Source: Candidatus Aenigmatarchaeota archaeon
Lineage (GTDB): Archaea; Aenigmatarchaeota; Aenigmatarchaeia; CG10238-14; SCSR01
NCBI GenBank assembly: GCA_038998335.1
Contig: JAVZHQ010000001.1
Span: 288,001 to 352,000 of the forward strand
DNA length: 64,000 nt
Direction of reading: 5' to 3'
Shown here: positions 8,440 through 41,807 of the stretch, one piece after another
How positions within the stretch are numbered: position 1 is the first letter of the stretch
Layout of the letters: every line of letters starts with the position of its first letter
Made by a program: the position numbers and the translations under genes
Notes under the pieces: generated by a model
The model's database searches: none
Seen by the model: the letters and a program-made list of their open reading frames with translations, nothing else
What the model was told of the DNA's origin: nothing

Positions 8440-8933
8440 AGTTTATATCCTATCTTTCTTAGGAATTCTTTTCTTTCCTTTACATCTTCCTCTTTTTCGA
8501 TACCTCTTGGTTTTAAACCATCTATTGTGCCAATTACTCCTCTTCCTTGTTCTGTTTCTGCTATTATCACTTCTACAGGGTTTGCGGTTGCGCAAAAAAT
8601 GGAGCAAACCTCTGGAACTTCTTTTATTCTGTTCAGAACATTTATCGGGTAAGCATTCCTTATGAAAATTAGAAAAGTATGGCCGCAGCCAATTTCTAAA
8701 ATTTTTTCACTAGCAAGTTTTTCTAGTTCTTCATCGTTTCCTGAGTGCCTTACCAAGCATTTTCCTGAAGATTCGCAAAATGCTAAACCAAACTTTATGT
8801 TTGGAACAGAATTGACTAAAGCTTCGTACAAGTCTTCAACAGTCTTTATAAAATGAGATTGACCAAGAATTAAATTACAGTTTTCTGGTGCTTGAAGTTT
8901 AACTATTTTGAATTCCATAATATTCATTTTCAA
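8436..8933 (-). CDS. Adenosine-specific kinase family (DUF355)
   Basis: [33 protein letters not shown]. Confidence 0.92.
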
Positions 8934-8941
8934 ATCAAGAT

Positions 8942-9718
8942 TTAAATTTTATTCTTCAGAAAAGAATAAAGGTGTGACTTAAACTTAAGTTTTTTATCTT
9001 CTTTCCTTGAAATTTTCCCTTGAGTCAAAAGCTCAAACATTCTTTGAGCGTTTTCTAGCATTGCATGATTATTGTTGAAAGCGACAAAAACTTTTTCTGG
9101 TTTTAAACTCAAAATTTTTTCCTTCACTTCTTCCAATTCTTTATCAGTATAGTAATGTGAGTACCAGGCAGTTCTTCCATGCATTCTTTGGTAAACTATA
9201 TTGTTGGAAGAATAAACTTCAAGAGGGAAGTCTGGCGAATCAACACTTACCCAAGTGATTTTAAGCTTTCTTGCCCATTCTATCCATTCTTCCTTAAACC
9301 AATCTAAATTTCTAACCTCCAAGGCAAACCTTTCTTTCAAGCTAGTCTTTCTTATGAATTCTTCAAGCTTGGAAGAAAACTTAGGAGTAAGGGTTGGTGG
9401 TAGTTGGAATAAATAGAATTCTATGTTTTTTTCTAAAGGTTTAAACAACTCTTCAAACCTTTTCCAGAGCTCAAAAGCTTTTTCGTTGAACTTAAAAGTA
9501 TGCGTAACAGCTTTGTTAACCTTTATAGCCCATCTTAGTTCAGGTTTTATCTCTAAAGTTTTCTTGGTCCAGGACTTTACTTGATTAGGAAAGGGGAAGC
9601 GATAAAAGCTTGCGTTCAATTCGATTGCGTTTAAGTTAGAGTTTTTAATATACCAATCAAAGCTAAGATCAGGGTTCCAATCGTAAAACCAGCCTGATGT
9701 TCCAACAAGGACCTCCAT
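8942..9718 (-). CDS. DUF72 family protein
   Basis: [30 protein letters not shown]. Confidence 0.92.
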
Positions 9719-9770
9719 ACTATTCTTTTTTGTTTTTAAGTTTTTAATTTCTGGTTCCCTATATTATTTT

Positions 9771-10559
9771 GTGAGCATTTTACCTCAGTTTCAGTTGTTA
9801 GAAGGAAAGTTATACCAAAAGAATTTGGACATAGAAAAAGAATGGGCTAAACAAGAACAGGAATTCGCTTTTCCAAGTATAAAATTTCCTAAAATAAAAA
9901 TATCAGACAAACTAAAAGCGATGATAGGGGTTTCGGCAGGGGTACCTCTAACTCTTACATTTCTTGAGCATGTAGCAGCGCTTTTTAACGTTGATGTTAG
10001 CTCTTTACCTTGGCAAATGGTAGTAACTTCTCTCATGTTTGGTCTTTCTTATAAGATAACTAAAAAATACATAAAAAATGAGAAGAGTTTGCCTATTCAT
10101 TTCCTCGGAAATGTGGCAGTAGTTCCTTCGGTCTTTGATGGAAGTTCTTACGCATTGTTTTACTTAAAAAATAATGGGAATGCAGGAAGAAGAGGTGAAT
10201 GGATTGAATCAGTTTACCCCAGCGCCATTTCGAAATTTTTAGCATCTCCTGTGTACAAAAACTTTCTTTTGATTGATGCGCTCGCTCTTTCTGTTTACAC
10301 AACTTATTCAAGCCTTCAGTTTTTGGATAAAAAATTCAAAATAGTAAGGAGAATGAAAGAAAAAATAATTGATCTTTACTCTAAAGTTTATGAGAGAGTA
10401 AACAGAGTTTATCAGACCTCTCCTTTGCACAAGCACTTGGTAAGAGGGGCTTTGTCTGTACCTCTTGTTGCTTCTGGAAATTACTGGATAACCCTGGCAC
10501 CTATCGTAGGAATTGCTATGGCTGAAGGAATGAGTCAGCTTAAAAATCTTTTAAGATGA
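9771..10559 (+). CDS. Hypothetical membrane protein
   Basis: Several hydrophobic segments; no known motif. Confidence 0.6.
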   Translation: MSILPQFQLLEGKLYQKNLDIEKEWAKQEQEFAFPSIKFPKIKISDKLKAMIGVSAGVPLTLTFLEHVAALFNVDVSSLPWQMVVTSLMFGLSYKITKKYIKNEKSLPIHFLGNVAVVPSVFDGSSYALFYLKNNGNAGRRGEWIESVYPSAISKFLASPVYKNFLLIDALALSVYTTYSSLQFLDKKFKIVRRMKEKIIDLYSKVYERVNRVYQTSPLHKHLVRGALSVPLVASGNYWITLAPIVGIAMAEGMSQLKNLLR

Positions 10560-17378: not shown

Positions 17379-17678
17379 ATGCCAGAAGTTTGCCCAAAAT
17401 GTGGACTTCCTCTTGAACTATGTGTTTGTAAGACTATAGAAAGAGAGGCAGAAAAAATCAGAGTTTTCATAGAAAGAAGAAGGTTCGACAAGCCAATAAC
17501 AATAATAGAAGGAATAAAAGAAAACGCAAAAGAAATAACCTCTCAACTTAAACAAAAACTTGCCTGTGGTGGAACTTTTAAGAAAGGACATATTGAGCTT
17601 CAAGGCGACCATAGAGCAAAAATAAAGGAATTGTTAGTAAAGCTTGGTTATTCAGAAGATTTAATTGAAATTATATAG
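17379..17678 (+). CDS. sui1: Translation initiation factor SUI1 (aIF1/YciH)
   Basis: CPKCGLPLELCVC, LKQKLACGGT, IELQGDH. Confidence 0.95.
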   Translation: MPEVCPKCGLPLELCVCKTIEREAEKIRVFIERRRFDKPITIIEGIKENAKEITSQLKQKLACGGTFKKGHIELQGDHRAKIKELLVKLGYSEDLIEII

Positions 17679-21840: not shown

Positions 21841-22719
21841 ATGTTTGAAGAATTTTCAATTTTTGTAGCTCTTTTTGGTTCTTCTCTTGCTGGAATTTGG
21901 GATTTAAAAACCACAGAAATTCCTGATTCTATTCCTCATGCAATGATTGTTATCGCAATACTAATTGCCTTAGCAAGAAGCTTCTACGAGCAAAGTTTTT
22001 TCCCTTTTGTTTATAGCTTAGCTTGTGGCACTATACTTTTTGCTTTCGGTTTTACTCTTTATTATTCAGGACAATGGGGTGGAGGAGACGCAAAAGTTTT
22101 AAGCGCTATAGGCTTTCTAATTCCAAACATGATTAAAAGTTCTTGGTTTGATAGAATCTTGCCCTTTCCTTTTAGTGGAATGGTAAGCTATACTTTAAAC
22201 GTTTTTTTTGTTGGAACCGCTTACATGCTATTTTATTCTTTTGTCCTTGCCTTTATCAACAGGAAGATTATAGCTTCTTTTTCAAAAGAAGTAAAAGCTA
22301 GTGCAAACTTGATAGCAATTTTTAGCTTAGCTTTATTATTTGTTTTTACTGCTCTTAACCTATACCTTTGTCATCTTTTTGATATACAAATAAACCTTCA
22401 GCTTCTATTAACAAATTCTTTACTTCCCCTACTCTTAACTCTAGGGATTTTTATGGTCTGGAAGTTTACAAAATCTGTGGAAGAAGTTGGGTTCAAGAAA
22501 AGAATTCCTGTTTCAAAACTTAAGGTTGGCGACGTTCTGGCAGAAAGCAAGTTGTGGGAAGGAATAACACAAAAAGAACTTATAAAAATAAAAAAGTCTG
22601 GGAAAAAGTACGTAACTATAAAAGAGGGAGTAAGGTTTGCTCCTGCCTTTCCTTTAGCTTTGCTTTTCACTTTGTATTTTGGTGATGTTTTTCCCTTAAT
22701 CTTTAAGCTTGTAATTTAA
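21841..22719 (+). CDS. A24 family prepilin/prearchaellin peptidase
   Basis: WDLKTTEIPD and WGGGDAK aspartate motifs; FAPAFP C-terminus. Confidence 0.9.
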   Translation: MFEEFSIFVALFGSSLAGIWDLKTTEIPDSIPHAMIVIAILIALARSFYEQSFFPFVYSLACGTILFAFGFTLYYSGQWGGGDAKVLSAIGFLIPNMIKSSWFDRILPFPFSGMVSYTLNVFFVGTAYMLFYSFVLAFINRKIIASFSKEVKASANLIAIFSLALLFVFTALNLYLCHLFDIQINLQLLLTNSLLPLLLTLGIFMVWKFTKSVEEVGFKKRIPVSKLKVGDVLAESKLWEGITQKELIKIKKSGKKYVTIKEGVRFAPAFPLALLFTLYFGDVFPLIFKLVI

Positions 22720-22744
22720 AAATTTGAAAAACTAAATATATTTT

Positions 22745-23383
22745 ATGAATTTGAGCTTTAGGAGTTTTTTTGATTGGTTTTTAGGTTTATTCGGGCAAAG
22801 AAAAAACATAAGGTTAGGAATATACGGAGAAACTAACGTAGGAAAAACAACTCTTGCAAACAGGATTTCTCTTGACTGGACAGGAGAAGAGGTTGGAAAA
22901 GTTTCTGAAATTCCCCATGAAACTAGAACAGTACAAAAGAAAGAGAAGGTTGAGATTAAGCTAAAAAATAAAAAGATAATTTTAAACCTCTTGGACATGC
23001 CTGGCTTGGCTACAAAAGTTGATTACAGAAATTTTTTAAAGTACGGCTTGTCTAAAAAACAAGCAAAAGAAAGGGCAAGAGAAGCTACTGAAGGAATAAT
23101 AGAAGCTATTAAATGGCTTAGTAATGTTGACGCTGTTCTAGCTGTTATGGATTCTACTCGCGACCCCTTAACTCAAGTTAACATAACCCTTTTGGGAAAT
23201 TTAGAAGCAAGGAAAATCCCTGTAATTATTGTTGCGAACAAAATAGACAAGAAAAGAGCAAAGCCTCAAGCAATAAAGGAAGCTTTTCCACAGTATCCTG
23301 TTGTTGAAGTCTCTGCCTTAAAAGGAAAAAATATGGACGAACTTTATGAGGCTATAGCAAAGTATGCAAGGCGAGCAAAATGA
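22745..23383 (+). CDS. oapA: Era-like GTPase (OapA)
   Basis: GETNVGKT, PHETR, DMPG, NKID; followed by DUF2073 and Zn-ribbon genes. Confidence 0.88.
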   Translation: MNLSFRSFFDWFLGLFGQRKNIRLGIYGETNVGKTTLANRISLDWTGEEVGKVSEIPHETRTVQKKEKVEIKLKNKKIILNLLDMPGLATKVDYRNFLKYGLSKKQAKERAREATEGIIEAIKWLSNVDAVLAVMDSTRDPLTQVNITLLGNLEARKIPVIIVANKIDKKRAKPQAIKEAFPQYPVVEVSALKGKNMDELYEAIAKYARRAK

Positions 23384-23778
23384 AGTTGAAAATTGATTTT
23401 GTTTCGTCTGCAACCCTTGACGGAAAACCAAGGAAAGAGAGGATAAACTTCATTTTGAACAAAGTTAAGGATGGTTCGATACTTGTAATGGACGGGGTGA
23501 TGAGCCCAGACGAAGAGCTTGACTTAATAAGAGAAACCATGAGAAGAGTAGACGATGGCTTTCCTGGAATTGAAGTTTGCAGTCTTAAGAGAAAAGTAAA
23601 AGGATTTCAACTTTTCCTTGAAAGAATTTCTGACCATACTTTTAAGTTAAGAGAATTGTTCCTAAGAAAACCTTCTGAAAAAAAACTCAAGTACGGAATA
23701 ACCTTAGTAGGACCTGCAAAGTACATAAAAAAGATTAAAAAGAACCCAAACTCATTTTCTGTTCTTACAGAGGTTTAA
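23380..23778 (+). CDS. oapB: DUF2073 family protein (OapB)
   Basis: GMSPDEELDLI, FPGIE, ITLVGPA-like motifs; operon context. Confidence 0.82.
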   Translation: MKLKIDFVSSATLDGKPRKERINFILNKVKDGSILVMDGVMSPDEELDLIRETMRRVDDGFPGIEVCSLKRKVKGFQLFLERISDHTFKLRELFLRKPSEKKLKYGITLVGPAKYIKKIKKNPNSFSVLTEV

Positions 23779-23780
23779 TC

Positions 23781-24188
23781 ATGCATAAGTGTATAAGATG
23801 TGGAGAAGTATATCAGGATAATGATGAATCTATTCTTAGAGGTTGTTTAAATTGCGGCTCAATATTTTTTCTCTACTTAAAAACTTCTGAAGAAAGTAAG
23901 CAGCTAGAAGAAATAGAAAAAGAATTAAAGGAAAAAGAAACTACGCTTGAAAAAGAAATAGAAAAGAAGATAGAGGAAATAAAGGAAGAAGAAAAGGTGA
24001 AGAAGAAGAAAGTTGCAAGAAAAAAGTTTGGGATCGAAACGATAAAAATCCCGAAAGAAGGAGTTTACGAGATTAACCTCGATGCTTTGATGAAGAAAAG
24101 ACCTTTGATAGTTCTGGAGAAAGGAAAGGTTTATTTTGTTCATCTTCCTTCTGTTTTTGAAAAGGAGCTTAATAAAGATAAAGAATAG
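23781..24188 (+). CDS. oapC: Zn-ribbon protein (OapC/DUF2072)
   Basis: HKCIRCG...ILRGCLNCGS, GVYEINLDALM. Confidence 0.85.
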   Translation: MHKCIRCGEVYQDNDESILRGCLNCGSIFFLYLKTSEESKQLEEIEKELKEKETTLEKEIEKKIEEIKEEEKVKKKKVARKKFGIETIKIPKEGVYEINLDALMKKRPLIVLEKGKVYFVHLPSVFEKELNKDKE

Positions 24189-28790: not shown

Positions 28791-28806
28791 TGTTAGACGT
28801 CTAACA
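28791..28806. repeat. 16-bp palindrome copy 1, TGTTAGACGTCTAACA
   Basis: Perfect palindrome; extends to 28786-28811 with one G/T mismatch. Confidence 0.95.
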
Positions 28807-29797: not shown

Positions 29798-29813
29798 TGT
29801 TAGACGTCTAACA
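29798..29813. repeat. 16-bp palindrome copy 2, TGTTAGACGTCTAACA
   Basis: Perfect palindrome; extends to 29789-29822 with two G/T mismatches. Confidence 0.95.
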
Positions 29814-29853: not shown

Positions 29854-30063
29854 TTAAACTGAAATTACTTTCTTCTCAAGAAGAATTGCTTCCCCACCTT
29901 GGTTTTTTATTCTTGTTGCTATTAACCTTAAAGTTTTTATGTCATCGCTTTCCCAAACAGAATGCTGAATTTTTTCTGCTCTAATTGCTTTTAAAGCTCT
30001 GTTTACTTGAACTTGCAAGACTTTTTTATCTCTTGGGATGTCGTAAATTATTATGTACTTCAT
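29854..30063 (-). CDS. Stand-alone Cas2/VapD-fold (PaaX central-domain-like) protein, 69 aa
   Basis: MKYIIIYDIP and IQHSVWES match the Cas2-type YDI and QxSV(F/W)E motifs; no other cas gene in the window. Confidence 0.8.
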   Translation of the reverse strand: MKYIIIYDIPRDKKVLQVQVNRALKAIRAEKIQHSVWESDDIKTLRLIATRIKNQGGEAILLEKKVISV

Positions 30064-30067
30064 AAGT

Positions 30068-30083
30068 TGTTATACGTCTAACA
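30068..30083. repeat. Palindrome copy 3 (variant TGTTATACGTCTAACA)
   Basis: One mismatch; 4 bp upstream of the Cas2-like ATG. Confidence 0.9.
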
Positions 30084-30102: not shown

Positions 30103-30118
30103 TGTTAGACGTCTAACA
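30103..30118. repeat. Palindrome copy 4, TGTTAGACGTCTAACA
   Basis: Perfect; supplies the TAA stop of ORF 30105-30452. Confidence 0.95.
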
Positions 30119-30452
30119 TAAAAAATAAAAAAAGAAGGGAGGTTAAGGAAAGTTTTTGTAAGATTTCAACAATTTTAGCAGGTTCGTGAATGCCTCTGAG
30201 AACTATTTCCTTTTGGTTGATGCTACCACTAGTGTTGAGAGCTTTTTGAAGTTCTTTTAAAGCTCTCTTTCTCCACGCTTCACTTTTTGTTATTTCTCCG
30301 CTGACTATTGTACAACCATTAGATGTTTTTTGAATCTTTACTTCGCATATTTTCTTTTCCTTCTCATCTTTAAGAGGACAAGAGCAATCTTTCTTAAGAT
30401 CTTTTGGCATACCACAAGCTTTACACGCCATTCTCCCATCCTCTCTATTCAA
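30105..30452 (-). CDS. Divergent SUI1/YciH-like paralog
   Basis: CKACGMPKDL..CSC, TIVSG, LQKALNTSGS, IVLRGIH align by eye with the canonical SUI1 at 17379. Confidence 0.7.
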   Translation of the reverse strand: MNREDGRMACKACGMPKDLKKDCSCPLKDEKEKKICEVKIQKTSNGCTIVSGEITKSEAWRKRALKELQKALNTSGSINQKEIVLRGIHEPAKIVEILQKLSLTSLLFLFFMLDV

Positions 30453-31121: not shown

Positions 31122-34100
31122 TTAAGCGATATTTATGGCTAGTATTTGCATCGTTAAGTCTGGTAGAAGAGCAGCAACGTATAATGTTTTAGTCGTTTCT
31201 TTTGTTTGGTACCAAAGGTATACTTTATCAATGTTGTTTGGTACACACACCTCTTGGACAAACCTCTGAATTACAGGCTTTACTTCGTCCCATGCTTGTG
31301 TTATCTTGAAGTCTATAGTAGCGAAGTATTCTGCAATCATTGGGTTTACTACACTTGGGGTTTTGATTGTAAGACCAAAGCTAATAAGCTCCTCTTTAAC
31401 TTTTTCTATCCTTTCTTCCTCGCCTTTAAGAAGACCTTTTGTTATGGCAATGTAAGCCTTTGAGGCTGCTGTCAGCACTTCTTCAGAGCTTGGGTTTGGG
31501 CTTAGAAGATAATAGCCAATTTTCCCAGTTGTTCCATCGATTGCTACTACCATAGTAACTTTCATCACTGTCGGAGTTATAGTATAGTAAGGAATAAAGA
31601 ATACCGGCTTCTCGTCGATTAGGTAGAGAATAAGGTTTCCTTCTTCCCATTGTTGCCCTTGTTGTTTTCTTGTTGTTAAAATATATTGAATCTCTGAGTT
31701 TGTGTTTACCGAATCTAGAAGTAATTGAATTGCCAAAGCATTTTTTATTGGCACAAAGAATTTTTCACCATTTCCTAGAAATATGTAAACTCCCGCTACC
31801 TGCCTTGCGCTCCATTGACCTGGCTCTGGTTTTTGTTTATAGAGTTCTACTATTCTTATTCCAGCGTATGTGAGTTTTCCTTGGTAATATATTGGAATGT
31901 ATCTTATGTCGTCGAATTTTATGTTGAAGTAGTTCCAGTTTCTATCAACAGGAAAATCAAACATGTTCAAAGTTTTATACCAGCTGTCCCAATCGTTAGC
32001 ATCTATGTGATAAGTGTTGTACAGGTCGATTAGGTTGTATGCCAAGCTTTTTGGAAATCTTACTTGCTCTTTAAGCCATTGTGGGATTTGTTTATTCCAA
32101 GCAGGATAGAAAGATGCGAAGTACTTTGTTATGTAATTTTCATCCCAATTTCCGTACCTAAATCCTTTTACTGTACCATCATGAGAATTTATTAAGACTA
32201 TAGCAAAAAGTCTTCTGAAATTCCCACTAGTTTTTACCAAGTATCCTGAAGTATCTGTATAGCCGCTATTAATTTTTTTGTTGATGTAGATAGCAAAACA
32301 GTAGTAAATGTTCCCTTCAGGGTCTACCACTAGATAAGGTATGGGCTTTCCGGTAGAAGGTTCTTTTTCTACTTCAAGTCCTTCGATCAGCAATGAATTT
32401 ATTCTTTCTACAACATCTCTTTTGAAAAGTACTGAAATTTCTTTTCCGTATTGTCCTGAAGCGAAGGCAAACTCACCTCTCCAGAAGAAGTACCACCATC
32501 TTTCAGTAGCGCCCCATACCACTGTATCTTTATCGCTCAATATATAGTCAGGAACTCCATCGTATGAAGCTGGCCCTTTATAGCTTGGAAGACTTGCCTC
32601 CTTCCACTTGCCTATGTTTAGATAAACTTCGTTTTGTTCTCTGAATAGACCACCAATTCCGTAGTACATAGAAAGAGTCGACATGTTAACTTGTGGAAAA
32701 ATTTTATCAAAGTCTACTATTTCTCCACTTGCTGCATCTACAGCAATTATCGATTGCGATCGAACGTAAATGTATCTTTTGCCTTCTACAACATCTGAAG
32801 CTTCTGGTAGTACTGGCGACGTTGGGCAAACCCAATACTCATGATTGTTTGCCCAAACAATCATAGGGCCATAGTAATACTTGTCTCCTTCTTGTTCTAC
32901 TGCCAGTTTCATCCAAGGCTGGCCAACTTTTATACCATAGGCATAAATCATTTGTTTGAGAGCAGCTGTATAGCTTATTATTCTTACATCTTTGAGTATG
33001 CTTTCCTCGAACTCTGGTGAAGTTTTTATAGCTTCAGATGATAAAGTTTGAATGTTTGACAAATCGTTAGTCCATTTAATATAGGCTATATGGGGTTGAA
33101 TTCTGTAAGGAAATTCAAAGATATTTTTAGAAGCGCTGTAATTTTGCTGAACATGATAGTTCCACCATGCTATTAATGTAGGAGCCCATAAAATTATAAT
33201 GATAAGGACTAAAGTAATAAGTACTGTACCAAGTGCGTGCTCTTCAAAGAATTTTGCTATGTAGGCTTCTGAATAGTGTAACGCTATTCCTAAAAATGCT
33301 AAAACAATAACTAACACTAGCCTCCATTGAACGTATATGGGAACTGTTATGTCACCGACAGTTGAAGGTACCATTAGAATACAGAAGTAGAAACTCCACG
33401 CAAAGCCTGAAATTAGGATATACTTAAACACTCTGATCATTTTTCTTTCTAATTCACCTTCTTCCCAACCCCATCTTCCTTTGTGCTCTGTTAAGGTCAC
33501 GTAAGAAGTTATTGGAACTTTGATGGTATAGTAGATAAGCAAAGGTAAAAGAATTAGGCTTAATAACTCTAGAAAGTCAAAGACTATTGTGTTTTCTAGT
33601 AGATAATTTGCTGTTGGTAGGCCTCCGAAGATATAGTAGTTTATCGATGGTAAGTAAACTCTTTGAATAAAATCTATCCAGTTCATTCCGTTCATTTGTA
33701 GGTATGAGTCAACAAGAAGCCATTGTCTAGCGATAGCATGACCTATGAATAATGCAACTATGAATCCTAAGAAAGCTCTTAGCAAAGCTAGGATTAAGCC
33801 TACTAAAGCTCTTTTAGCAAGGCTAGTCTCGTTAATATCTACGTCGAATAATCTAAACACAAGCTTCATAGTTGCTCTTTTTCTCCAGAAGAAAGGATTG
33901 CTTAAGAACCAGATCAAAGGTATTACCCAAAGAACTTGCCAGTAGTAGCCTTTTTCAAAGGTTATGTCCCAGATGTTTACTCCTGCTTTGTGAAGCATCC
34001 ACCATCCGTTAAACTTCATTTGGAATAGCCAGTTTGCATAGGATAGTTGCGAAATTATGAAGATTATTATTGCTAAGAACATTATTGTTATTGTTAGTCG

Positions 34101-34160
34101 TTTATGCTCTTTGAAGAACTCTTTTATTTGCTTTCCGTAGCCAATTCTTTCTTCTTCCAT
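31122..34160 (-). CDS. UPF0182 family membrane protein
   Basis: N-terminal multi-TM region then large soluble domain with PYLVVD, INSHDGTV, VRFPKSL...NTYH, FFIPYY motifs. Confidence 0.75.
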   Translation of the reverse strand: MEEERIGYGKQIKEFFKEHKRLTITIMFLAIIIFIISQLSYANWLFQMKFNGWWMLHKAGVNIWDITFEKGYYWQVLWVIPLIWFLSNPFFWRKRATMKLVFRLFDVDINETSLAKRALVGLILALLRAFLGFIVALFIGHAIARQWLLVDSYLQMNGMNWIDFIQRVYLPSINYYIFGGLPTANYLLENTIVFDFLELLSLILLPLLIYYTIKVPITSYVTLTEHKGRWGWEEGELERKMIRVFKYILISGFAWSFYFCILMVPSTVGDITVPIYVQWRLVLVIVLAFLGIALHYSEAYIAKFFEEHALGTVLITLVLIIIILWAPTLIAWWNYHVQQNYSASKNIFEFPYRIQPHIAYIKWTNDLSNIQTLSSEAIKTSPEFEESILKDVRIISYTAALKQMIYAYGIKVGQPWMKLAVEQEGDKYYYGPMIVWANNHEYWVCPTSPVLPEASDVVEGKRYIYVRSQSIIAVDAASGEIVDFDKIFPQVNMSTLSMYYGIGGLFREQNEVYLNIGKWKEASLPSYKGPASYDGVPDYILSDKDTVVWGATERWWYFFWRGEFAFASGQYGKEISVLFKRDVVERINSLLIEGLEVEKEPSTGKPIPYLVVDPEGNIYYCFAIYINKKINSGYTDTSGYLVKTSGNFRRLFAIVLINSHDGTVKGFRYGNWDENYITKYFASFYPAWNKQIPQWLKEQVRFPKSLAYNLIDLYNTYHIDANDWDSWYKTLNMFDFPVDRNWNYFNIKFDDIRYIPIYYQGKLTYAGIRIVELYKQKPEPGQWSARQVAGVYIFLGNGEKFFVPIKNALAIQLLLDSVNTNSEIQYILTTRKQQGQQWEEGNLILYLIDEKPVFFIPYYTITPTVMKVTMVVAIDGTTGKIGYYLLSPNPSSEEVLTAASKAYIAITKGLLKGEEERIEKVKEELISFGLTIKTPSVVNPMIAEYFATIDFKITQAWDEVKPVIQRFVQEVCVPNNIDKVYLWYQTKETTKTLYVAALLPDLTMQILAINIA

Positions 34161-34258
34161 TTTTCTTTCCTCCTTTTTCTTGCCCCACCCACGGCTGGAT
34201 TTTGGGGTACGTGGGGCTTGGCCCCAGGCTTAAAAGCCCTCCAGCCCACAGAAAAAAA
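34160..34258 (-). repeat. 99-bp GC-rich direct repeat copy A (structured leader plus SD)
   Basis: Identical to 39195-39293. Confidence 0.95.
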
Positions 34259-34265
34259 GGGAATT

Positions 34266-34538
34266 TTAAAGAGAGAAAGCCCAAAAAAAGGCTATAGTCC
34301 ATGCTATTATCACTGCTATGAAAGGAACCCTCTTGTCTTTGTAAACCATTGAATATGAGTAAATTCCTAAGGCTGCAAAGAAGCCAAAGAGTAGAAGTAT
34401 GTAATAGCTGAATACTACAGGAAACGTTTGTTGAAATTCTTGGATTCTTAGGTTAAGTCCGATTATTAGCAAGAAAGCGCACCATCCTGCCAAAAACAAA
34501 GCTGCAAAGCAAAGACTTACTATTTTACTCTTTTCCAT
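34266..34538 (-). CDS. Small 3-TM membrane protein
   Basis: Hydrophobic 90 aa; GGAGGTGA SD upstream. Confidence 0.75.
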   Translation of the reverse strand: MEKSKIVSLCFAALFLAGWCAFLLIIGLNLRIQEFQQTFPVVFSYYILLLFGFFAALGIYSYSMVYKDKRVPFIAVIIAWTIAFFWAFSL

Positions 34539-34559
34539 TTAGCTTCTCACCTCCTTTTT

Positions 34560-34706
34560 AATTTGATAACCTTGAAGAAAAACAAGAAAAGACATTCAAT
34601 TCTTAACAAAAGACAACTCAAGAAAAAAATTTTCTTTTTGATTAGAAAAAACTCTACCAAAATTTTTCTTCAATTTTTGCTTTTTTCCTTCAAGTTTTAT
34701 CAAGTT
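34560..34706. repeat. Imperfect inverted repeat of about 30 bp in an intergenic leader
   Basis: AATTTGATAACCTTGAAGAAAAACAAG (34560-) versus reverse complement of 34674-34706 AACTTGATAAAACTTGAAGGAAAAAAGC. Confidence 0.6.
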
Positions 34707-34808
34707 AGTTGCTCTAAAGGTAAACCAAGTTTTTTCGTTTAATAAATCTTATAATTATAAACTTCGAAAGCCTTATAAGTTTTTTTCTCAAAAAATGAAA
34801 CACTTGTT

Positions 34809-36878
34809 TCACCTTTCTGGAATAAACTCAATTTTTTTCCAAGTTTCGCCTTTTTTAAAATCTTCTATGCTTGCAACGTAAAGGATTAAACCTATTCCTT
34901 TATGCTCAAAGCTATACTTTGCAGCTTGCTGTATTACACAAACTTTTATTTTTTCCGAAGAGCAAACAAAATAAATTTCTTTTCTGGAATTCTTTATTTT
35001 TTCATAAATCTTAGCCGGAACAGCTTCAGCTATCAAGCTAACTTCAAAGTTAAACTCATTTTTTTCTATTTCAATTTTTTCTTGAGTCCTTGAAACTATT
35101 CTATAGCCATTCAAAGTGAAAACGTTTTCCAAAAACTTTATTTCCTCTTCGCTAAACTCCTTTCTCTCATGCTTTGGCAAGGTATTGTTTCTTAAGATAA
35201 GAGCAAGCTCACCCTCATGTGTTAAGAAGTAGAATATGGCAGTTTGCTTGTAAACCTTTGCTTTTCTTGAACCGATAAAACCTATTTGGCTAAGCTTTTC
35301 TACAATTTCGTTAAAAACTCTGCAAGACATTTTTAACTTTTTATAAAGCTCAGAAGTGTAAGAACCTTCAAAACTAGCTAAAGCTTCTAAAACTTTCCAC
35401 TCGTTATAAGTAACTCTTAAAATCTTTTTCTCGATATCTTCTTTCTCAAGCTTAAGCGCAACCTCAAAATCCTTTCTTTCTCTTTCTTTAAATTTCAAAA
35501 TCCTTTCTTCCATTTCCTTTCTTAAAATTTCATCGCTTATAATTCCCCTTTCAACCAAAACTAAAGGAAACTTTATCAGGAAAGGATTTGGAAAATCAGA
35601 CTTTCTTATCAAAATAAAAGCATGTCCTACAGGAAGCCTTCTCAAGTAATCTATATCTTTTTCTTCTCTTAATCCTAACATATTAGCTGCATCTTGTACG
35701 TCTGAAGAATACTTTGTATCTAAGCCCAAATTCATGTAAATATGCGTAGAAGTGTTTCCCAAGGCAGGATAGCTCACTAAAGAAGGGTGCTGATCAACAT
35801 AAATCATTCCTATTCCTAACTCTCTAATTTCTCTGAATATCAAATCAGTTACAGCTTCTACCCCAAACTTCTTAGTTTTTTCTCTGTTCAAAACATGATG
35901 AGCTTCTTCAAGGATTATTACTCCCAAAAGCTTTTCTCTTTTGTTTGAAACAATAAGCCAATCTCTTATCCATTGCAAGATTATTTCTATGAAAAAAGTT
36001 TTGTCATCATTGCTTAAAGAATCGAGCTCAAGTATTGTTATTTTGCCTTTTTCAAAAAAGCTCGAAGGTAAAATTCCTTTTTCACAATCAAAGATTTCTC
36101 CTGTTTCTCTCAAGCATAAAGATTCTAAAGGCCTTTTTGCAGTTGCTATCCAGTTTTTCTCTCTTGGTGAAAGCTCAAAGCAAGAATATTTCTCAAGCCA
36201 ATCTTTTATATCTTTTATTCTTGGAGTTTCTGGCTCAAGCTTTTTGTAGAGCTCGTCCAAAGCTTTTAAGATTATGTGCCTTCCTCCTCCCAAAAGCCAG
36301 TAAGCATGGTCAAAAACTTCGGCAAACTCTTTTATCCACTGAGAAACCTGAACTCCTTGAGGAGGAACCAAAGGATTAAACCTGAAAGGAGCAATATCTC
36401 TTCCAACAGTATAAACTGTTATCCTTTCTTTAAGCTCAGTAGCAAGCAAATCTCTGTAGTTTCTTTTTGAAAAGTCAAAAATTAAAATTGGAATTTCCCT
36501 TTTTGCTAAGGATTTTACAAGAAAATGAACAATATTAGTTTTTCCTGAGCCTGAAGAACCAAAGATTCCTACATGCGTTAGCAAATCTTTCTCGTTTAAA
36601 AACAAAGGGTAAAGCTCTTTCTTTCCGTATAAAATGGTTCCGAGCTCAAAATCTCCTTTTGAAGCAATTTCTTTTGGAGGAGGCTCTAGCAAAGCTGAAC
36701 TTTTTAATTCATCATCAGAAAAAATGCTTGCTTTTATTCCGTCTATTATTTCAACTATTTTCTTTCTATATTCTTCATCTCCTAGAAAATAAGCTGCCTC
36801 GAGCCTTGCTGCTTTTTCTTTCCCCAAAAAAGGAATAAGCCTTTGAATCTCTTTTGTTATTTCTTCCATTTTATCCAC
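34809..36878 (-). CDS. HerA/VirB4-like (DUF87) ATPase with C-terminal winged helix
   Basis: Walker A GSSGSGKT, Walker B IILEEAHH, REIRELGIGMIYVDQHPS; FYFLTHEGE wHTH wing. Confidence 0.88.
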   Translation of the reverse strand: MDKMEEITKEIQRLIPFLGKEKAARLEAAYFLGDEEYRKKIVEIIDGIKASIFSDDELKSSALLEPPPKEIASKGDFELGTILYGKKELYPLFLNEKDLLTHVGIFGSSGSGKTNIVHFLVKSLAKREIPILIFDFSKRNYRDLLATELKERITVYTVGRDIAPFRFNPLVPPQGVQVSQWIKEFAEVFDHAYWLLGGGRHIILKALDELYKKLEPETPRIKDIKDWLEKYSCFELSPREKNWIATAKRPLESLCLRETGEIFDCEKGILPSSFFEKGKITILELDSLSNDDKTFFIEIILQWIRDWLIVSNKREKLLGVIILEEAHHVLNREKTKKFGVEAVTDLIFREIRELGIGMIYVDQHPSLVSYPALGNTSTHIYMNLGLDTKYSSDVQDAANMLGLREEKDIDYLRRLPVGHAFILIRKSDFPNPFLIKFPLVLVERGIISDEILRKEMEERILKFKERERKDFEVALKLEKEDIEKKILRVTYNEWKVLEALASFEGSYTSELYKKLKMSCRVFNEIVEKLSQIGFIGSRKAKVYKQTAIFYFLTHEGELALILRNNTLPKHERKEFSEEEIKFLENVFTLNGYRIVSRTQEKIEIEKNEFNFEVSLIAEAVPAKIYEKIKNSRKEIYFVCSSEKIKVCVIQQAAKYSFEHKGIGLILYVASIEDFKKGETWKKIEFIPER

Positions 36879-37467
36879 CTAAGTTTAAGTCTGAAAATAA
36901 GCTTGCTATCTTTGATTCTTCTTCGTATTGCTCTTCAAGCTCTTTTAGCTGCTTTCTTAAGGCTACTATGTCACGCCAGAAAAGAGTATTTTCCTTTCTC
37001 TTTTCCATTCTTAACAAAGTAACGTTAAGCTTAAACTCCCTTAGCTCTTCCCTGTTTGAAATTGTTGAAATTATTCTTTCCATTTCTGCTATGTCTGAAT
37101 CTATTTCTTTGTTAAACTTTACGTTCATCTCTTCTCTTTCTTTAATAATCTGCTTGATTTCTTCTATTCTTTCCTTCAAGAACCTCACTCTATCGAACAA
37201 ATTTCCAACAACTTTTGAACCAAAGAGCTCTAAAGGTTCAATTTCGGTTGATTGCATATCCTTAGCAAGCTTTTGAAGAATTGGCACGCTTATTTTCTGA
37301 ATTTTTGGCTTGATTACTTTAACTTCTTCTTGTTTGTACTTTGGAATTTTTGGCAAAGCTTGAGAAGAGCTATCTTCTTTTTTCTCCACATAATCTTCGC
37401 TGTCCTTGCTCTTGTAGCTTTTTATAACTCTTTTTATTTCTTTGTCATCCAATTCATAGTATTCCAT
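36871..37467 (-). CDS. Coiled-coil protein coupled to the HerA-like ATPase
   Basis: E/K/R-rich heptads; overlaps the ATPase start. Confidence 0.75.
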   Translation of the reverse strand: MEYYELDDKEIKRVIKSYKSKDSEDYVEKKEDSSSQALPKIPKYKQEEVKVIKPKIQKISVPILQKLAKDMQSTEIEPLELFGSKVVGNLFDRVRFLKERIEEIKQIIKEREEMNVKFNKEIDSDIAEMERIISTISNREELREFKLNVTLLRMEKRKENTLFWRDIVALRKQLKELEEQYEEESKIASLFSDLNLGG

Positions 37468-37643
37468 ATAATCACTTATTGGTAGTTAATGAAAATTAAA
37501 TTATTTAAATCTTTCGATGTTAAGACAACTAAAGACATTTTTCTCCACTTTTCAAAATTTTTCTCAATTCTTTAAGAAATTTGTCCAAAAAAATTGGTAC
37601 AAATGCGTCAAATTTAAAAACTTTTTTGTCATTATATTTTCAT

Positions 37644-38081
37644 ATGATAGACGAAAGAGATTTGTTTATATTAAATGAATTGAGAAAAAACGCAAGGCTT
37701 AGCTCTCGTGCCCTAGCAAAAAAAGTTGGCTTACCAATTTCTACCGTGCATAGAAGAATAAAAAGGATGGAAAAGGAAGGAATAATCAAAGGGTATTATG
37801 CAGCCATAGACTTTGAAAAGATAGGAAAACCTATAGAAGCATTAATATTGATAAACCTTGCAGAAGGAAGAGAATATATCCCTTTAGAACAAATAAAAAA
37901 AGAGCTTAAAGGAATAGGAGAAATAATGGAAATTCTTGTTCTTCAAGGGGGAAACATCGATCTAATAACAAAAGTGAGGCTTCCTAACCTTAAAAACCTT
38001 TCATCATTTTTGGAAAACATAAGAAAGCTTGAAGGAATAGAGGAAGTTTCTTGCTCCATAGTTGCTGAGGAATTGAGTTAA
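37644..38081 (+). CDS. Lrp/AsnC family transcriptional regulator
   Basis: IDERDLFILNELRKNAR...STVHRRIKRMEKEGIIKGY; start moved to ATG 37644. Confidence 0.93.
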   Translation: MIDERDLFILNELRKNARLSSRALAKKVGLPISTVHRRIKRMEKEGIIKGYYAAIDFEKIGKPIEALILINLAEGREYIPLEQIKKELKGIGEIMEILVLQGGNIDLITKVRLPNLKNLSSFLENIRKLEGIEEVSCSIVAEELS

Positions 38082-38090
38082 TTTTTTAGA

Positions 38091-38106
38091 TGTTAGACGT
38101 CTAACA
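38091..38106. repeat. Palindrome copy 5, (A)TGTTAGACGTCTAACA(T)
   Basis: Perfect 18-bp palindrome 38090-38107 between convergent genes. Confidence 0.95.
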
Positions 38107-38148
38107 TAAAACAAAAAAATGGGGAAGTGGAAAGGAAGTCAAAGAAAC

Positions 38149-38325
38149 TCATTGCCTTCTAAGCTTTGGTATAGCAAAAGCTAAGATTAGCCCTAGAAAG
38201 AAAATCAGCACAACGAAGATTGCTGTGCCAAGAATAGGACCTGCCATCAGAGCAAGGAAAACCGTCACTATTAAGTAAAGCACTGATAGCAAAGCCATTG
38301 TCACAATTTTTTCTTCCTTTGGCAT
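38149..38325 (-). CDS. Small 2-TM protein (58 aa), candidate immunity protein
   Basis: Start MPKEEK at 38325 behind a GGAGGAG SD overlapping the upstream stop. Confidence 0.65.
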   Translation of the reverse strand: MPKEEKIVTMALLSVLYLIVTVFLALMAGPILGTAIFVVLIFFLGLILAFAIPKLRRQ

Positions 38326-38336
38326 GTTAGCTCCTC

Positions 38337-39194
38337 CTAGATTATGATGAAAAAGCCCCAGTCCTTCCATGCACCGAAGCTCATCCACCACCAAGCTGCT
38401 ATCACCCAGCCAAAGAATGTTAGTTTGCCATAGCCCCATGTGTATATCCAACCGTCTCCAAGCTCTGTCTGTATTATATTTTCGATGAACCATCTTATTA
38501 AGTATCCTACTAACGCTAATATTGCTCCGACCAAAGCTATTATTCCTGCCACAAACTTGCTAACAAGCTCTGGAACTGCTAGCAAGCCCGCGATTATCGG
38601 TCCTAAAAGCCCTGCTATGGAAGCAAAGGTTGACTTATACTTTGCATCCTCTAAAGTGTATTGAGGAATGTGATGATGATGCTTTGAAGCTCCGTTTAAA
38701 GTATAGGCTTTGTTCTTAGCTAGTGGATAGTAGGTTTCTATGTTGTCAGGATGGTCGTACTTAACCCAGAAATAATCGCTTCCAGGAGCTCTAACAAAAA
38801 GTATACCATCCCAATAGTATTTTGGTAAACTTAAACTAGAAGTTGTTGCCATAACTCTATAGCCTGGCTCTATGAAAAGCCAAGAAGGCATAGGCACTCT
38901 AGGAGGTTTTGGCTGAGGATATATTTTTGCTATTGGATAAGGATCAGACTTTATTGTTATTACCCTTCCTTCAACAGTAGTTTTTACTTCAATCTGAACG
39001 TAGTGTTGACCTGCTTTTATTATGTCAAACCTTTTGGCATAGACTTTGAAACCATTTATTTCAAACGTTTTTGAAGTTTCTATGGTTAAATTTGTGTTTA
39101 ATAGCGAGACACTTGCATAAGTTGGCAGAGCTACACTTGAACTTAGCACTAGGAAGAGAAGCAGCGCTACTATTGCTACTTTGTACTTTCGCAT
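38337..39194 (-). CDS. Secreted protein with C-terminal hydrophobic helical hairpin (285 aa)
   Basis: Signal peptide MRKYKVAIVALLLFLVLSSSVA; Gly/Ala-rich hydrophobic C-terminal region; start moved to 39194. Confidence 0.75.
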   Translation of the reverse strand: MRKYKVAIVALLLFLVLSSSVALPTYASVSLLNTNLTIETSKTFEINGFKVYAKRFDIIKAGQHYVQIEVKTTVEGRVITIKSDPYPIAKIYPQPKPPRVPMPSWLFIEPGYRVMATTSSLSLPKYYWDGILFVRAPGSDYFWVKYDHPDNIETYYPLAKNKAYTLNGASKHHHHIPQYTLEDAKYKSTFASIAGLLGPIIAGLLAVPELVSKFVAGIIALVGAILALVGYLIRWFIENIIQTELGDGWIYTWGYGKLTFFGWVIAAWWWMSFGAWKDWGFFIII

Positions 39195-39293
39195 TTTTTC
39201 TTTCCTCCTTTTTCTTGCCCCACCCACGGCTGGATTTTGGGGTACGTGGGGCTTGGCCCCAGGCTTAAAAGCCCTCCAGCCCACAGAAAAAAA
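39195..39293 (-). repeat. 99-bp GC-rich direct repeat copy B
   Basis: Identical to 34160-34258. Confidence 0.95.
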
Positions 39294-39309
39294 AGAGGGA
39301 AAATGAAAG

Positions 39310-41448
39310 CTATTCCTTTTCTTCTTCCTCTTTGTCTCTCTTTTCTAGAAATTCTGTCAACTGCTTTGCTATGAGTTTTGCTGGAAGTGTTTGAGACACT
39401 GGCTTAACTATAGCCTTTATCAAAGAACCTATGCCAATTAGCACAAAGATTATTCCAACTATGCAGCAAATGTAACCTATTGCCATATCCAAGGCTGGAA
39501 CCGAGAGTAATGTCCATGAACCTATTTTCCAGTCTATTATGCCTATGGAAAGTTTTGCAAATATCAGATACTTTAGAAAGAATAAACCTAGAAAGAACGC
39601 AACGATACCGCAAAGGATTATCGAGATAGGAAACTTGAACCTTTGCCATACTGGTATGGTTACCTCTTTTACTATCTTTTTGCCTTCTTTTGCTGCAGTT
39701 TTTGCTAACTCTTTTGCCTTCTTTCTTTTGTACTCGTCTCTTGCTATTGCTCCTACTGTTACAATCATTGAAGTAATGCATACCGTTGCAAGAACCCAAA
39801 CCCAAGGACTAATTCCATGTTCACTTATTGGCTTGTCAGGATCAGAGTCTGGGTCTGGATCAGGTTTTGGATTTGGCGGAGTTCTGTCAACTATTTCTGT
39901 GTTGTTATCTGGCAGGACTGGTGGCAAAAGTTTGAAGCTTAAGTAAGCGTTGCTTGTCACTAGCCCATCCCAAGACCTTTTCACGTAGAAAAATACCTTT
40001 CCTTCTGTTTCGCTTGCTACGCCCAGGTTTTCCACCTCAAAACTAAGCTTTTCTGTTTCATTTGGCTTTAAAGTTATAGTAACGCTAGTAGGTTTAATAG
40101 AAGCTCTTGAAGTGCTTGTGTCAGCAATAACAATTGCAGAACTTGCTGTTTTTGCGTACTGCTTCAACACTACTTCACACTTTCTTTTCCCTGCTGCTTC
40201 TATCTCTGAACTTCCAACCCACTTCACGCTTTCTATTCTTATGTCAGCAATCGGTGGCCTATAAACCCAAGTTTCAGCAAGCTCAGTAGGAACAAAGAAA
40301 GTAACTATCGGAGCTCCGCTATAAGCTCCCCATGGAATTTCCACTATTACAGCATGAGGTTCGCCGTCTTTCATTTCTATCTGCCATTTATAACCTCTTA
40401 GCCATGTTTTGGCAATGTTTCCTTGACTTGTCATTTTATTTAGGTACCACATCAAGCTGTAGTCGCCTTCGCTTGGGTAGATGGGTGGAGCTATAGGATC
40501 TCTTATGAAGTTAATGTCCCAAAATCCATCTCGTGCAACCCAACCTTTTTCTGAATCGATTATCGGATAAGCTAAATCTGGCTGCTTGAAAGGTGCTGGA
40601 CTACCTGCAACATCCTTATCGCTTACTGCACAAGGATTCCATCTTACTACGCCGAACCAGAAGGTAGAGTAAGCTTTGCTGTCCTTTATATAGCAAAGTA
40701 CGCAACTTTTTGAAGGATAGTATACTGTGGTAGCACCATGATCATATCTTATATATTGGAGTGCTTCGCTTGTAAAAATGTAGTTCTCGTTGAAAAGGAC
40801 TATTTCAGGAACATGTGGCTCTGAGAAATCACCCTCTAGTCTACCTAAGTTTTTGATTAGTACAGGACCTTTTGGTGTGTTAACCACGAATTCCTTTTCT
40901 CCTGCCTCTGTGTTTAGCGAAGCTTTGCCCATTAGAGTACCTTCTAGATAAACAGAAACTTCGAAGATTGTGTATTTTTCCCAACTAGGCTCTCCCCATT
41001 GGTAATATTTAACTACTGTTGCTGGTATAGAAACATCTTTTTCGTACCAAACGTTACCGATAAGTTTGCTCGCGCATCCTCGATAAACTTTTGGTGCAAC
41101 TATTCTGTCTTCTATGGGAGCAAGCTTAAGTAATCTTTTGAAATAGGACTTTACTGGTTTTATTACTATTTCCACCGTTTTCTTCGTTTTTATCTTAGCT
41201 CCTTCTTCATCTTTCAAAGGCTGCGTTGTGTTTGCAGGAAGTTTTATTCTTCCCTCAAAGTTGTCCATCTGGTCTACTGCTGCAGTAAAAACCCAGTAGC
41301 CCCCTCGCCAATTCCCTGAGCTATCCTCGTCACCACCTTGCAACTGAACGTTTTGCGGTGGGGTTAAAAGTGTTGCTTCGCAGCTTACTGTTAAGCTAAG
41401 CACTAGGAAGAGAAGCAGCGCTACTATTGCTACTTTGTACTTTCGCAT
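39310..41448 (-). CDS. Large surface protein: signal peptide, beta-rich ectodomain, Pro/Asp linker, C-terminal TM helices
   Basis: Same N-terminus as the 285-aa ORF; PPNPKPDPDPDSDPDKP linker; three C-terminal hydrophobic segments. Confidence 0.8.
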   Translation of the reverse strand: MRKYKVAIVALLLFLVLSLTVSCEATLLTPPQNVQLQGGDEDSSGNWRGGYWVFTAAVDQMDNFEGRIKLPANTTQPLKDEEGAKIKTKKTVEIVIKPVKSYFKRLLKLAPIEDRIVAPKVYRGCASKLIGNVWYEKDVSIPATVVKYYQWGEPSWEKYTIFEVSVYLEGTLMGKASLNTEAGEKEFVVNTPKGPVLIKNLGRLEGDFSEPHVPEIVLFNENYIFTSEALQYIRYDHGATTVYYPSKSCVLCYIKDSKAYSTFWFGVVRWNPCAVSDKDVAGSPAPFKQPDLAYPIIDSEKGWVARDGFWDINFIRDPIAPPIYPSEGDYSLMWYLNKMTSQGNIAKTWLRGYKWQIEMKDGEPHAVIVEIPWGAYSGAPIVTFFVPTELAETWVYRPPIADIRIESVKWVGSSEIEAAGKRKCEVVLKQYAKTASSAIVIADTSTSRASIKPTSVTITLKPNETEKLSFEVENLGVASETEGKVFFYVKRSWDGLVTSNAYLSFKLLPPVLPDNNTEIVDRTPPNPKPDPDPDSDPDKPISEHGISPWVWVLATVCITSMIVTVGAIARDEYKRKKAKELAKTAAKEGKKIVKEVTIPVWQRFKFPISIILCGIVAFFLGLFFLKYLIFAKLSIGIIDWKIGSWTLLSVPALDMAIGYICCIVGIIFVLIGIGSLIKAIVKPVSQTLPAKLIAKQLTEFLEKRDKEEEEKE

Positions 41449-41807
41449 TTTTCTTCTTTCCTCCTTTTTTTATTTTCCTCATCATCTCGAGGAATTCTGC
41501 CATAGCTCAACTATGACTGTAAGAAGCCTCTCCCTTCCCCTAAAACTCTAAAGACAGCGCTTTTTCTTTCCCAAGACAAGTAGCTTTCAAAATTTTATAG
41601 AAGGCGATATTCTTGAGTACTTCACTTTTTTGTTTTTTTCTTATCTTGTTAGCTACTCTATCCAAAACGAATTTTGCACAGTCCTTTTGTAAGTGTAAAT
41701 TAGGTAAAGTAAGAGCATATGGATAATTTACTGCAAGCCATAGAAAGAAAAGTTTATAAAGAGAGAAAGGTTTTTAAATCTTTATATCTATTATTAACTA
41801 TTAAAAA

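Follow-up and report, generated by a model that had tools for sequence, protein, structure and literature searches.

We describe a structured RNA element that is encoded twice on the minus strand of a 64,000-nucleotide (nt) stretch of DNA, hereafter the window, from a Candidatus Aenigmatarchaeota archaeon (GenBank assembly GCA_038998335.1, contig JAVZHQ010000001.1, positions 288,001 to 352,000 of the forward strand). An earlier reading of the letters alone, referred to here as the sequence-only reading, had drawn attention to a repeated stretch as a portable structured leader placed before unrelated genes. Comparison of the element with its relatives supports that claim. Covarying helices indicate that the element is under selection as RNA on the minus strand, and we consider it probable that it is a cis-acting structured leader controlling the gene that follows it. 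It most likely represents a new RNA family, acting as a cis-acting control or processing element, and our searches indicate that it is lineage restricted and approximately 75 nt long.

A repeat scan of the whole window showed that positions 34160-34258 and 39195-39293 are 100% identical over 99 nt, with starts 5035 nt apart, exactly as had been proposed. Read on the minus strand, each copy runs from a U-run through a GC-rich core and an A-rich linker to GGAGG and a start codon, which agrees with the layout of U7, Shine-Dalgarno (SD) sequence, and AUG given by the sequence-only reading. The 3' end of copy A is the A of the ATG of the open reading frame (ORF) at 31122-34160, and copy B stops one base short of the ATG of the ORF at 38337-39194; both copies are intergenic, and the genes on either side of each are co-directional. 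The two downstream genes are indeed unrelated, the best BLASTP match (E value of 0.04) lying on a hydrophobic stretch. The G+C content of the core is 53 to 62% (approximately 56%), compared with 31 to 40% in the window and 33% in the genome, in keeping with the description of a GC-rich element in a very AT-rich genome. The window is chromosomal and archaeal, encoding TFIIB, SecY, ribosomal-protein operons, and tRNA synthetases.

Misassembly had been named as a possible source of the repeat, and two observations speak against it. DNA run X1, possibly the source sample, yielded a contig of 99 letters that spanned exactly 34160-34258 and nothing else, at a depth of 102, approximately 2.8 times that of its flanks, the depths of the four flanking contigs being 34.7 to 41.8. 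A 99-base contig at raised depth argues for a true repeat in the assembly graph rather than an assembly artefact. In addition, the gene order around the repeat in the genome of this window (G000) recurs in a congeneric genome (G001), in which two copies are separated by 5037 nt; since the SD-proximal parts of the two G001 copies differ, that arrangement is not a collapsed repeat.

Only two full copies were found in the whole genome (1,009,365 bases in 9 contigs), the third match being 19 nt long with an E value of 0.05. A BLAST search of 61 genomes recovered full-length relatives in G001 (two), G004, G005, and G011. A covariance model built from these BLAST relatives (R1) was positive in 7 of 70 family genomes at 62 to 116 bits, namely, G000, G001, G003, G004, G005, G011, and a small contig of G088, and a second model (R2), run on 118 genomes of the order, recovered the same 7, which apart from the small contig belong to a single genus and its sister genus; in a class sample of 151, R2 recovered 2 genomes (G000 and G011). 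Two copies were present in G000 and G001, and one was detected in each other carrier. A degenerate 20-nt core pattern occurred at 19 loci in genome contigs (6 from Candidatus Aenigmatarchaeota, 1 from an "uncultured archaeon," and 12 from GC-rich bacteria or a haloarchaeon), at 32 loci in metagenome contigs, and at no locus in viral contigs. R1 matched none of the 12 loci from GC-rich bacteria or the haloarchaeon and 23 of the 32 metagenome loci, at 43 to 115 bits; one further metagenome locus with a weak partial match (21 bits, 78% G+C) was taken as chance. The search for further copies suggested by the sequence-only reading thus yielded relatives in 7 of 118 genomes of the order and at 23 of 32 metagenome loci. 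Together with 9 genome loci, these gave 32 sequences, 23 of them distinct.

At one loop position, both G000 copies carry C and both G001 copies carry U. Gene conversion between the copies is the best explanation of this pattern and would account for their perfect identity here. The copy ahead of the 285-amino-acid (aa) gene is an innovation of the G000/G001 lineage, and we propose that an older duplication would have brought the leader to this second gene, after which gene conversion would have kept the copies alike.

Fold and covariation of the leader

Pairing was assessed on a plain MAFFT alignment of longer stretches, not structure fitted, of 26 of the 29 distinct extended sequences; L094 and L077 (near-duplicates of G005 and G011, respectively) and L093 (a degenerate copy) were left out. 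On this alignment, RNAalifold predicted three helices, P1, P2, and P3a, without structural input. The core fold together with a pseudoknot was paired in 98.1% of 566 cells, compared with 29.9 to 51.9% when the partners were slid by 1 to 3 columns. Eight pairs changed on both sides, four of the seven in P1, two in P2, and one each in P3a and the pseudoknot, and the observed values were reached by none of 500 shuffles; covariation among homologs, which the sequence-only reading had proposed as a check, was therefore found. A model-fitted alignment agreed with the MAFFT alignment on pairing.

P1 was encountered in at least five compensated versions (GGCUGGA/UCCAGCC, GGCCAGA/UCUGGCC, GGCCGGG/CCCGGUC, GGCUGGG/CCCAGCC, and GGUCGGA/UCCGGCC), with covarying columns such as CG in 16 and UA in 9 sequences or GC in 14 and AU in 10. 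The variable pair of P3a was GC in 17, AU in 6, and GU in 2 of the 26 sequences and unpaired in 1, and the middle pair of the pseudoknot was UA in 18, CG in 7, and UG in 1. There were 28 G-U cells, which would be C-A mismatches if read on the opposite strand, compared with 11 nonstandard cells, and this difference identifies the coding (minus) strand as the RNA strand.

These data indicate that the element is a three-way junction closed by a 7-bp P1 and holding P2 and a 4-bp P3a, in which the P3a loop pairs with the 3' tail in a 7-bp pseudoknot. The consensus of the pseudoknot joins GCCYCAC in the P3a loop to GUGRGGC in the tail; its 3' segment starts 4 bases past P1 and ends 4 to 10 nt ahead of the SD sequence. 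The invariant bases that stay unpaired are CUGUG ahead of P1, CAA and ACGYA in the loop, and GURG. Two helices of the sequence-only reading, the closing helix GGCUGGA/UCCAGCC (P1) and its first hairpin (P2), are kept by compensatory changes. Its GGGGC/GCCCC hairpin fared less well, with no change on both sides and with each of the two end pairs unpaired in 6 of 23 distinct sequences; the pairing of GGGG with a downstream CCCC (P3a) is the better-supported alternative on the alignment. Because this pairing places GCCCCAC in a loop, its pairing with the 3' GUGGGGC forms a true pseudoknot and not the arm of a demonstrated switch. Of the earlier proposal that these two segments form a switch or a pseudoknot, the pseudoknot is upheld by compensatory changes, and the hairpin that competes with it is poorly kept. 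That hairpin, which shares a strand with the pseudoknot, is at best a weak candidate for an alternative state.

On the 5' side, almost all copies carry UUCCC, U7-8, and (C)UGUG ahead of P1; the lineage of G003, L070, and L091 has a different 5' flank, ending in CCUC or UCUC. On the 3' side, the pseudoknot is followed by 4 to 10 A-rich bases, the SD sequence, and the start codon, which is mostly ATG and at some loci TTG or GTG. The leader is always close to the SD sequence and start codon that come after it, whereas the upstream stop codon lies 7 to approximately 225 nt off. The U7/U8 tract may be an archaeal oligo-U terminator of the upstream gene. Of 24 distinct upstream flanks, 15 fold into an extra hairpin at the same spot, with a conserved GACCAAUUCC behind it, and two sequences have a wholly different yet complementary stem at this spot. 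A small upstream ORF ends with its stop codon at the foot of this hairpin, and the A/T-rich loop of the hairpin lies 26 to 31 nt ahead of GUG; the hairpin is missing from both G000 copies. It was rejected as a K-turn or box C/D motif, as a canonical stem could not be drawn. The leader may be transcribed either by read-through of the U-run or from its own promoter; the regions upstream of tRNA genes were too A/T rich to yield a TATA model by which the hairpin loop could be judged as a promoter.

Proposed function of the leader and alternative explanations

The element always abuts the ribosome-binding site of the next ORF, which differs between loci and strains. Gene context was compared by tblastn of the window proteins against the 32 loci. 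The leader was followed by a member of the 1012-aa family at 9 of the 32 loci, by an 89-aa plus 327-aa pair at 3, and by the 285-aa protein at 2 (G000 and G001 only), and a relative of the 285-aa protein lay upstream of the leader at 13. At several other loci, the leader precedes only a small membrane ORF or a short remainder of the 1012-aa gene, and a divergent SUI1-like gene comes next. Searches did not recover the 1012-aa gene from G001, G004, or G011, nor the 327-aa gene, the product of which has a weak HflK match (E value of 6e-6; SPFH-like), from G000. The recognizable downstream products all start with a membrane or signal segment. We infer that the element acts in cis on the following gene.

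Comparison with known families agrees with the earlier suggestion that the family is a new one. At gathering scores, the only match to Rfam 15 in the whole window was a tRNA, and at E values of up to 10, the best match within 34120-34300 was suhB (21 bits, the gathering score being 41), which lay entirely on the upstream flank. The element is most like orphan riboswitch candidates and other leaders with pseudoknotted three-way junctions, with which it shares a compact, covarying fold of approximately 75 nt, invariant loop and junction bases, and a position directly 5' of the ribosome-binding site of several different genes; as expected of a riboswitch, it has an aptamer-like fold that is kept by covariation. 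It differs from these candidates in that its SD sequence lies outside the conserved pairs, its genes encode membrane proteins without a family assignment rather than one pathway, and its range is narrow, comprising one genus, a sister genus, and relatives in metagenomes.

Invariant unpaired bases such as CUGUG, CAA, ACGYA, and GURG would not be required in a simple stabilizing hairpin or a thermometer; they suggest that a protein, a ligand, or the ribosome recognizes the element specifically or that the element is catalytic. As a cis-acting leader, the compact fold with its invariant unpaired bases would bind a factor (a protein or a small ligand), which would determine how readily the small ribosomal subunit reaches the adjacent SD sequence and start codon or how long the mRNA 5' end lasts. 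We put forward such factor-dependent control of translation initiation or of 5'-end stability as a tentative mechanism, with somewhat less than even confidence.

Several observations weigh against the interpretation of the element as a control leader. The contigs listed from RNA libraries X10 and X11, in which 5 to 7% of sampled words were contained, lie on flanking genes only (33599-33867, 34265-34697, 38146-38605, 38689-39142, and 39802-40377), and none of those listed crosses the GC-rich core. No known pathway unites the downstream genes. One covarying pair supports P3a and one the pseudoknot, each perhaps reflecting one or two events, and the remaining pairs of both helices are invariant; moreover, the 20-nt core of the 23 metagenome sequences, including the 5' strand of the pseudoknot, was fixed by the search pattern. 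Exceptions to pairing occur, with U-U at the variable P3a pair in G005 and A-C in P1 in L079 and L100, and the L088 copy is without P2 and the L093 copy without the whole 3' half. The SD sequence is outside the conserved pairs. A further helix between the U-run and the purine-rich SD region (P0) was predicted by minimum free energy, duplex folding, and RNAalifold. However, P0 has no preferred register, slid versions being paired at 84 to 95%, and predicted occlusion of the SD sequence is common in the genome (median unpaired probability of 0.36 at 37°C in 21 control genes). P0 is therefore not counted as evidence. In RNA thermometers of the fourU type, a U-run pairs with the SD region; the U-run of the element can do the same, but without a preferred register and no more strongly than in control genes, and the GC-rich pseudoknotted core would be left unexplained.

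The alternative that survives best is that the element cleaves itself as a ribozyme or is cut by a processing nuclease, between the cistrons and near the invariant GUG before P1, so that the downstream mRNA would be left with a compact, protected 5' end. We regard this as improbable. The element always lies between two co-directional genes, and its compact pseudoknotted fold with invariant unpaired CUGUG, CAA, and ACGYA would suit such a role. So would the predicted behavior of the SD sequence, which is mostly paired when 24 nt of 5' flank is included (unpaired probability of 0.01 to 0.54 at 37°C) and open if the RNA begins at GUG (0.72 to 1.00; 10 of the 26 sequences). The topology also partly resembles that of hepatitis delta virus (HDV)-like ribozymes. 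These form a nested double pseudoknot of P1, P1.1, P2, P3, and P4, with a catalytic C before the 3' strand of P2. The element resembles them in its 7-bp P1 near the 5' edge, in a hairpin loop that pairs just past the 3' strand of P1, and in its location between cistrons, and counterparts of P1, P3, and P1.1 can be named. However, inspection of the supported pairs revealed nothing that corresponds to P2, to P4, or to a joining strand that carries the catalytic C, so the double pseudoknot of the HDV type is incomplete, and the loop-tail helix is 7 bp long compared with 2 bp in HDV. The core motifs of hammerhead ribozymes were absent by eye, and no Rfam ribozyme model matched at E values of up to 10. 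The element is present in two copies per genome at most and in a very narrow range of organisms, and a cut was seen in no read data.

A site acting at the DNA level is far less probable. The sequence-only reading had considered a recombination site and had noted that the two copies enclose 4.9 kb including the gene for a HerA-like ATPase; on this view, the repeats would be an attachment (att) or recombination site or a cassette boundary, bracketing a mobile or excisable segment. Two perfect direct repeats lie 5 kb apart, and strains differ in which gene comes after the leader. Contig depth in DNA run X2 was 15 on the side of the 1012-aa gene, compared with 74.4 on the other side of the leader, which together with the gene swaps suggests that the cassette after the leader is polymorphic in populations. 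However, none of the 73 scanned window ORFs belongs to an integrase, transposase, relaxase, or recombinase family, the 4.9-kb interval is syntenic in G001, and in G003 the HerA-like gene lies directly upstream of the leader and the 1012-aa gene. The 34258-39195 joint was absent among the DNA contigs listed from X1 and X2, although rare forms are lost from contigs. The swaps can be attributed to homologous recombination of the ordinary kind between the conserved flanks, and the compensatory changes, including the G-U pairs that fit one strand only, argue for RNA. The proposal of a recombination site therefore found no support here.

Less probable still is the idea that the element derives from or mimics the 5' (Alu) domain of the signal recognition particle (SRP) RNA and was placed ahead of genes for membrane and secreted proteins. 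The only weak extra matches of both covariance models, at 18.5 to 23 bits, fall on the SRP RNA 5' domain in one sister genus, in which a similar stretch of approximately 23 nt is visible. The plan is alike, with a closing helix and two hairpins, as in the archaeal SRP RNA (RF01857), and the start of the recognizable downstream products with a membrane or signal segment would fit. However, RF01857 does not match the element at E values of up to 10, and the true SRP RNA of the genome, which lies elsewhere (C1:640751-641034, 130.9 bits), is not matched by the element model. The matches are confined to one genus; the best per-genome E value, 0.003, implies approximately 0.35 chance matches in a set of 118 genomes, and in AT-rich genomes such matches can fall only on GC-rich stable RNAs. 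The weak matches are thus most likely due to chance among GC-rich stable RNAs.

It is equally improbable that the element has no function of its own and is an ordinary intergenic terminator and ribosome-binding site, recently duplicated: the two copies are perfectly identical and the U-runs and purine-rich SD regions generic, but the core is conserved over two genera and 23 metagenome loci with compensated helices, has approximately 56% G+C in a genome of 33%, and is kept even where the 1012-aa gene is lost.

Two other known arrangements were also compared. Programmed -1 frameshift signals consist of a U-rich slippery run, a short spacer, and a pseudoknot, and the element has U7-8, a 5-nt spacer, and a stable pseudoknotted fold. 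This candidate was rejected since the U-run lies 7 to approximately 40 nt past the upstream stop codon in every context read and is thus untranslated; in addition, the next gene here has its own SD sequence and start codon. A dispersed repeat of the repetitive extragenic palindrome (REP) or miniature inverted-repeat transposable element (MITE) type was rejected because it would require many copies, whereas carriers have one or two.

Neighboring genes and other features of the window

The positions of the leader copies, their parts, and the adjoining genes are collected in Table 1.

Table 1. Leader copies, structural parts of copy A, and adjoining genes (window coordinates)
Feature	Position	Strand	Remarks
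Leader copy A	34160..34258	-	U7, CUGUG, structured core, A-rich linker, GGAGG, spacer, first ATG base of 1012-aa gene
Leader copy B	39195..39293	-	Identical to copy A; all sub-features recur at +5035
U7 tract	34252..34258	-	U8 in copy B (39287-39294)
P1 5' strand, GGCUGGA	34240..34246	-	4 of 7 pairs with changes on both sides
P2 hairpin, GGGCU, loop UUUA, AGCCU	34226..34239	-	Predicted from covariation and RNAalifold
P3a, GGGG (34222-34225) with CCCC (34204-34207)	34204..34225	-	14-nt loop: CAA, GCCCCAC (34211-34217), GUA
P1 3' strand, UCCAGCC	34193..34199	-	Predicted from covariation
Pseudoknot 3' strand, GUGGGGC	34182..34188	-	Pairs with 34211-34217; conserved GUGG (34189-34192) just before
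SD sequence, GGAGG	34169..34173	-	8 nt past pseudoknot, 8 nt ahead of ATG
Gene past copy A, 1012-aa membrane protein	31122..34160	-	No Pfam or NCBIfam match
Gene past copy B, 285-aa protein	38337..39194	-	N-terminal signal-peptide-like stretch; no family match
Gene ahead of copy A, 90-aa ORF	34266..34538	-	Stop codon 7 nt before U-run
Gene ahead of copy B, 712-aa protein	39310..41448	-	Shares SD region and signal peptide with 285-aa gene

Assignment of the 1012-aa protein to UPF0182 was suggested by an Atlas score of 0.96 and was not confirmed; the Atlas score of the 285-aa protein was only 0.86. Comparison of 31122-34160 with positions 8552-9809 of locus L047 (G001) revealed a strain-level cassette swap directly past the leader, between the 1012-aa gene and the 89-aa plus 327-aa pair; the flanks are identical and extend into the next gene, of which the first 68 residues are shared. 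The genes for the 285-aa and 712-aa proteins are N-terminal paralogs, and the 712-aa gene has the same SD context without the structured core. A 67-nt direct repeat, 93% identical (39132-39198 and 41386-41452), covers the SD region and the part of both genes that encodes the signal peptide. Among the metagenome loci, L093 (oriented positions 1967-2041 of a 100-kb contig) carries a decayed leader with an intact 5' half and without the 3' strands of P1 and the pseudoknot.

In the RNA library of a relative (X11), two contigs lead from the 5' edge of the leader region, at 34247 and 34254, back to 34532 and 34697, as a tandem duplication of the 90-aa gene unit would give. Another X11 contig starts at 34145, and its preceding 105 letters resemble the 89-aa gene of G001-type strains.

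The divergent paralog of SUI1/aIF1 lies at 30105-30452 on the minus strand (19.5 bits, below the Pfam cutoff) and has a Cys-rich N terminus and a hydrophobic tail; a canonical aIF1 gene is also present at approximately 17448-17651 on the plus strand (66.5 bits). Close relatives of the paralog, as found with this query, occurred only in leader-carrying genomes, the hits in other genera being the canonical gene beside an L29-like ORF. The paralog was considered as a dedicated partner of the leader, since it lies in the same operon or after the leader at several loci, and was set aside because this pattern is inseparable from shared ancestry.

The HerA/FtsK-type ATPase (689 aa, 34809-36878, minus strand) has an F-93-like winged helix (Pfam E value of 4.5e-5); its best NCBIfam match is CedD (E value of 1.6e-21), far below the cutoff, and its counterpart in G003 is the gene directly upstream of the leader mentioned above. 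The genes for OapB and OapC (23380-24188) lie at the maximum of cumulative GC skew (0.85, 22001-24000), and this region could be a replication origin. A 16-bp palindrome, TGTTAGACGTCTAACA, is intergenic and perfect at 28791-28806, 29798-29813, 30103-30118, and 38091-38106 and has one mismatch at 30068-30083. One of these copies lies within the 4.9-kb interval, just past an Lrp/AsnC gene, and a 69-aa ORF among the palindromes (29854-30063) has a weak Cas2 match (Pfam E value of 4.9e-4, below the cutoff).

Implications for Aenigmatarchaeota

To our knowledge, very few cis-acting regulatory RNAs are known in archaea, and among the entries listed by full-text searches of the literature, none reported such an RNA from Aenigmatarchaeota or from other DPANN archaea. 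The compact and thermostable fold, in which a three-way junction is combined with a pseudoknot and with unpaired bases that never vary, has the look of ligand-binding, protein-binding, or catalytic RNAs, and at approximately 75 nt, the element is small enough for direct biochemistry. It is conceivable, although rather unlikely, that the element belongs to a new class of archaeal riboswitches or small ribozymes, of which it would form the sensing or catalytic core, and that it gates the production of interchangeable membrane and surface proteins. If so, this would be the first such class in DPANN archaea, in hot-spring cells that have small genomes and are possibly host dependent. As a cis-acting leader situated where strains exchange the following gene, the element may provide a fixed control module for variable membrane-protein cassettes.

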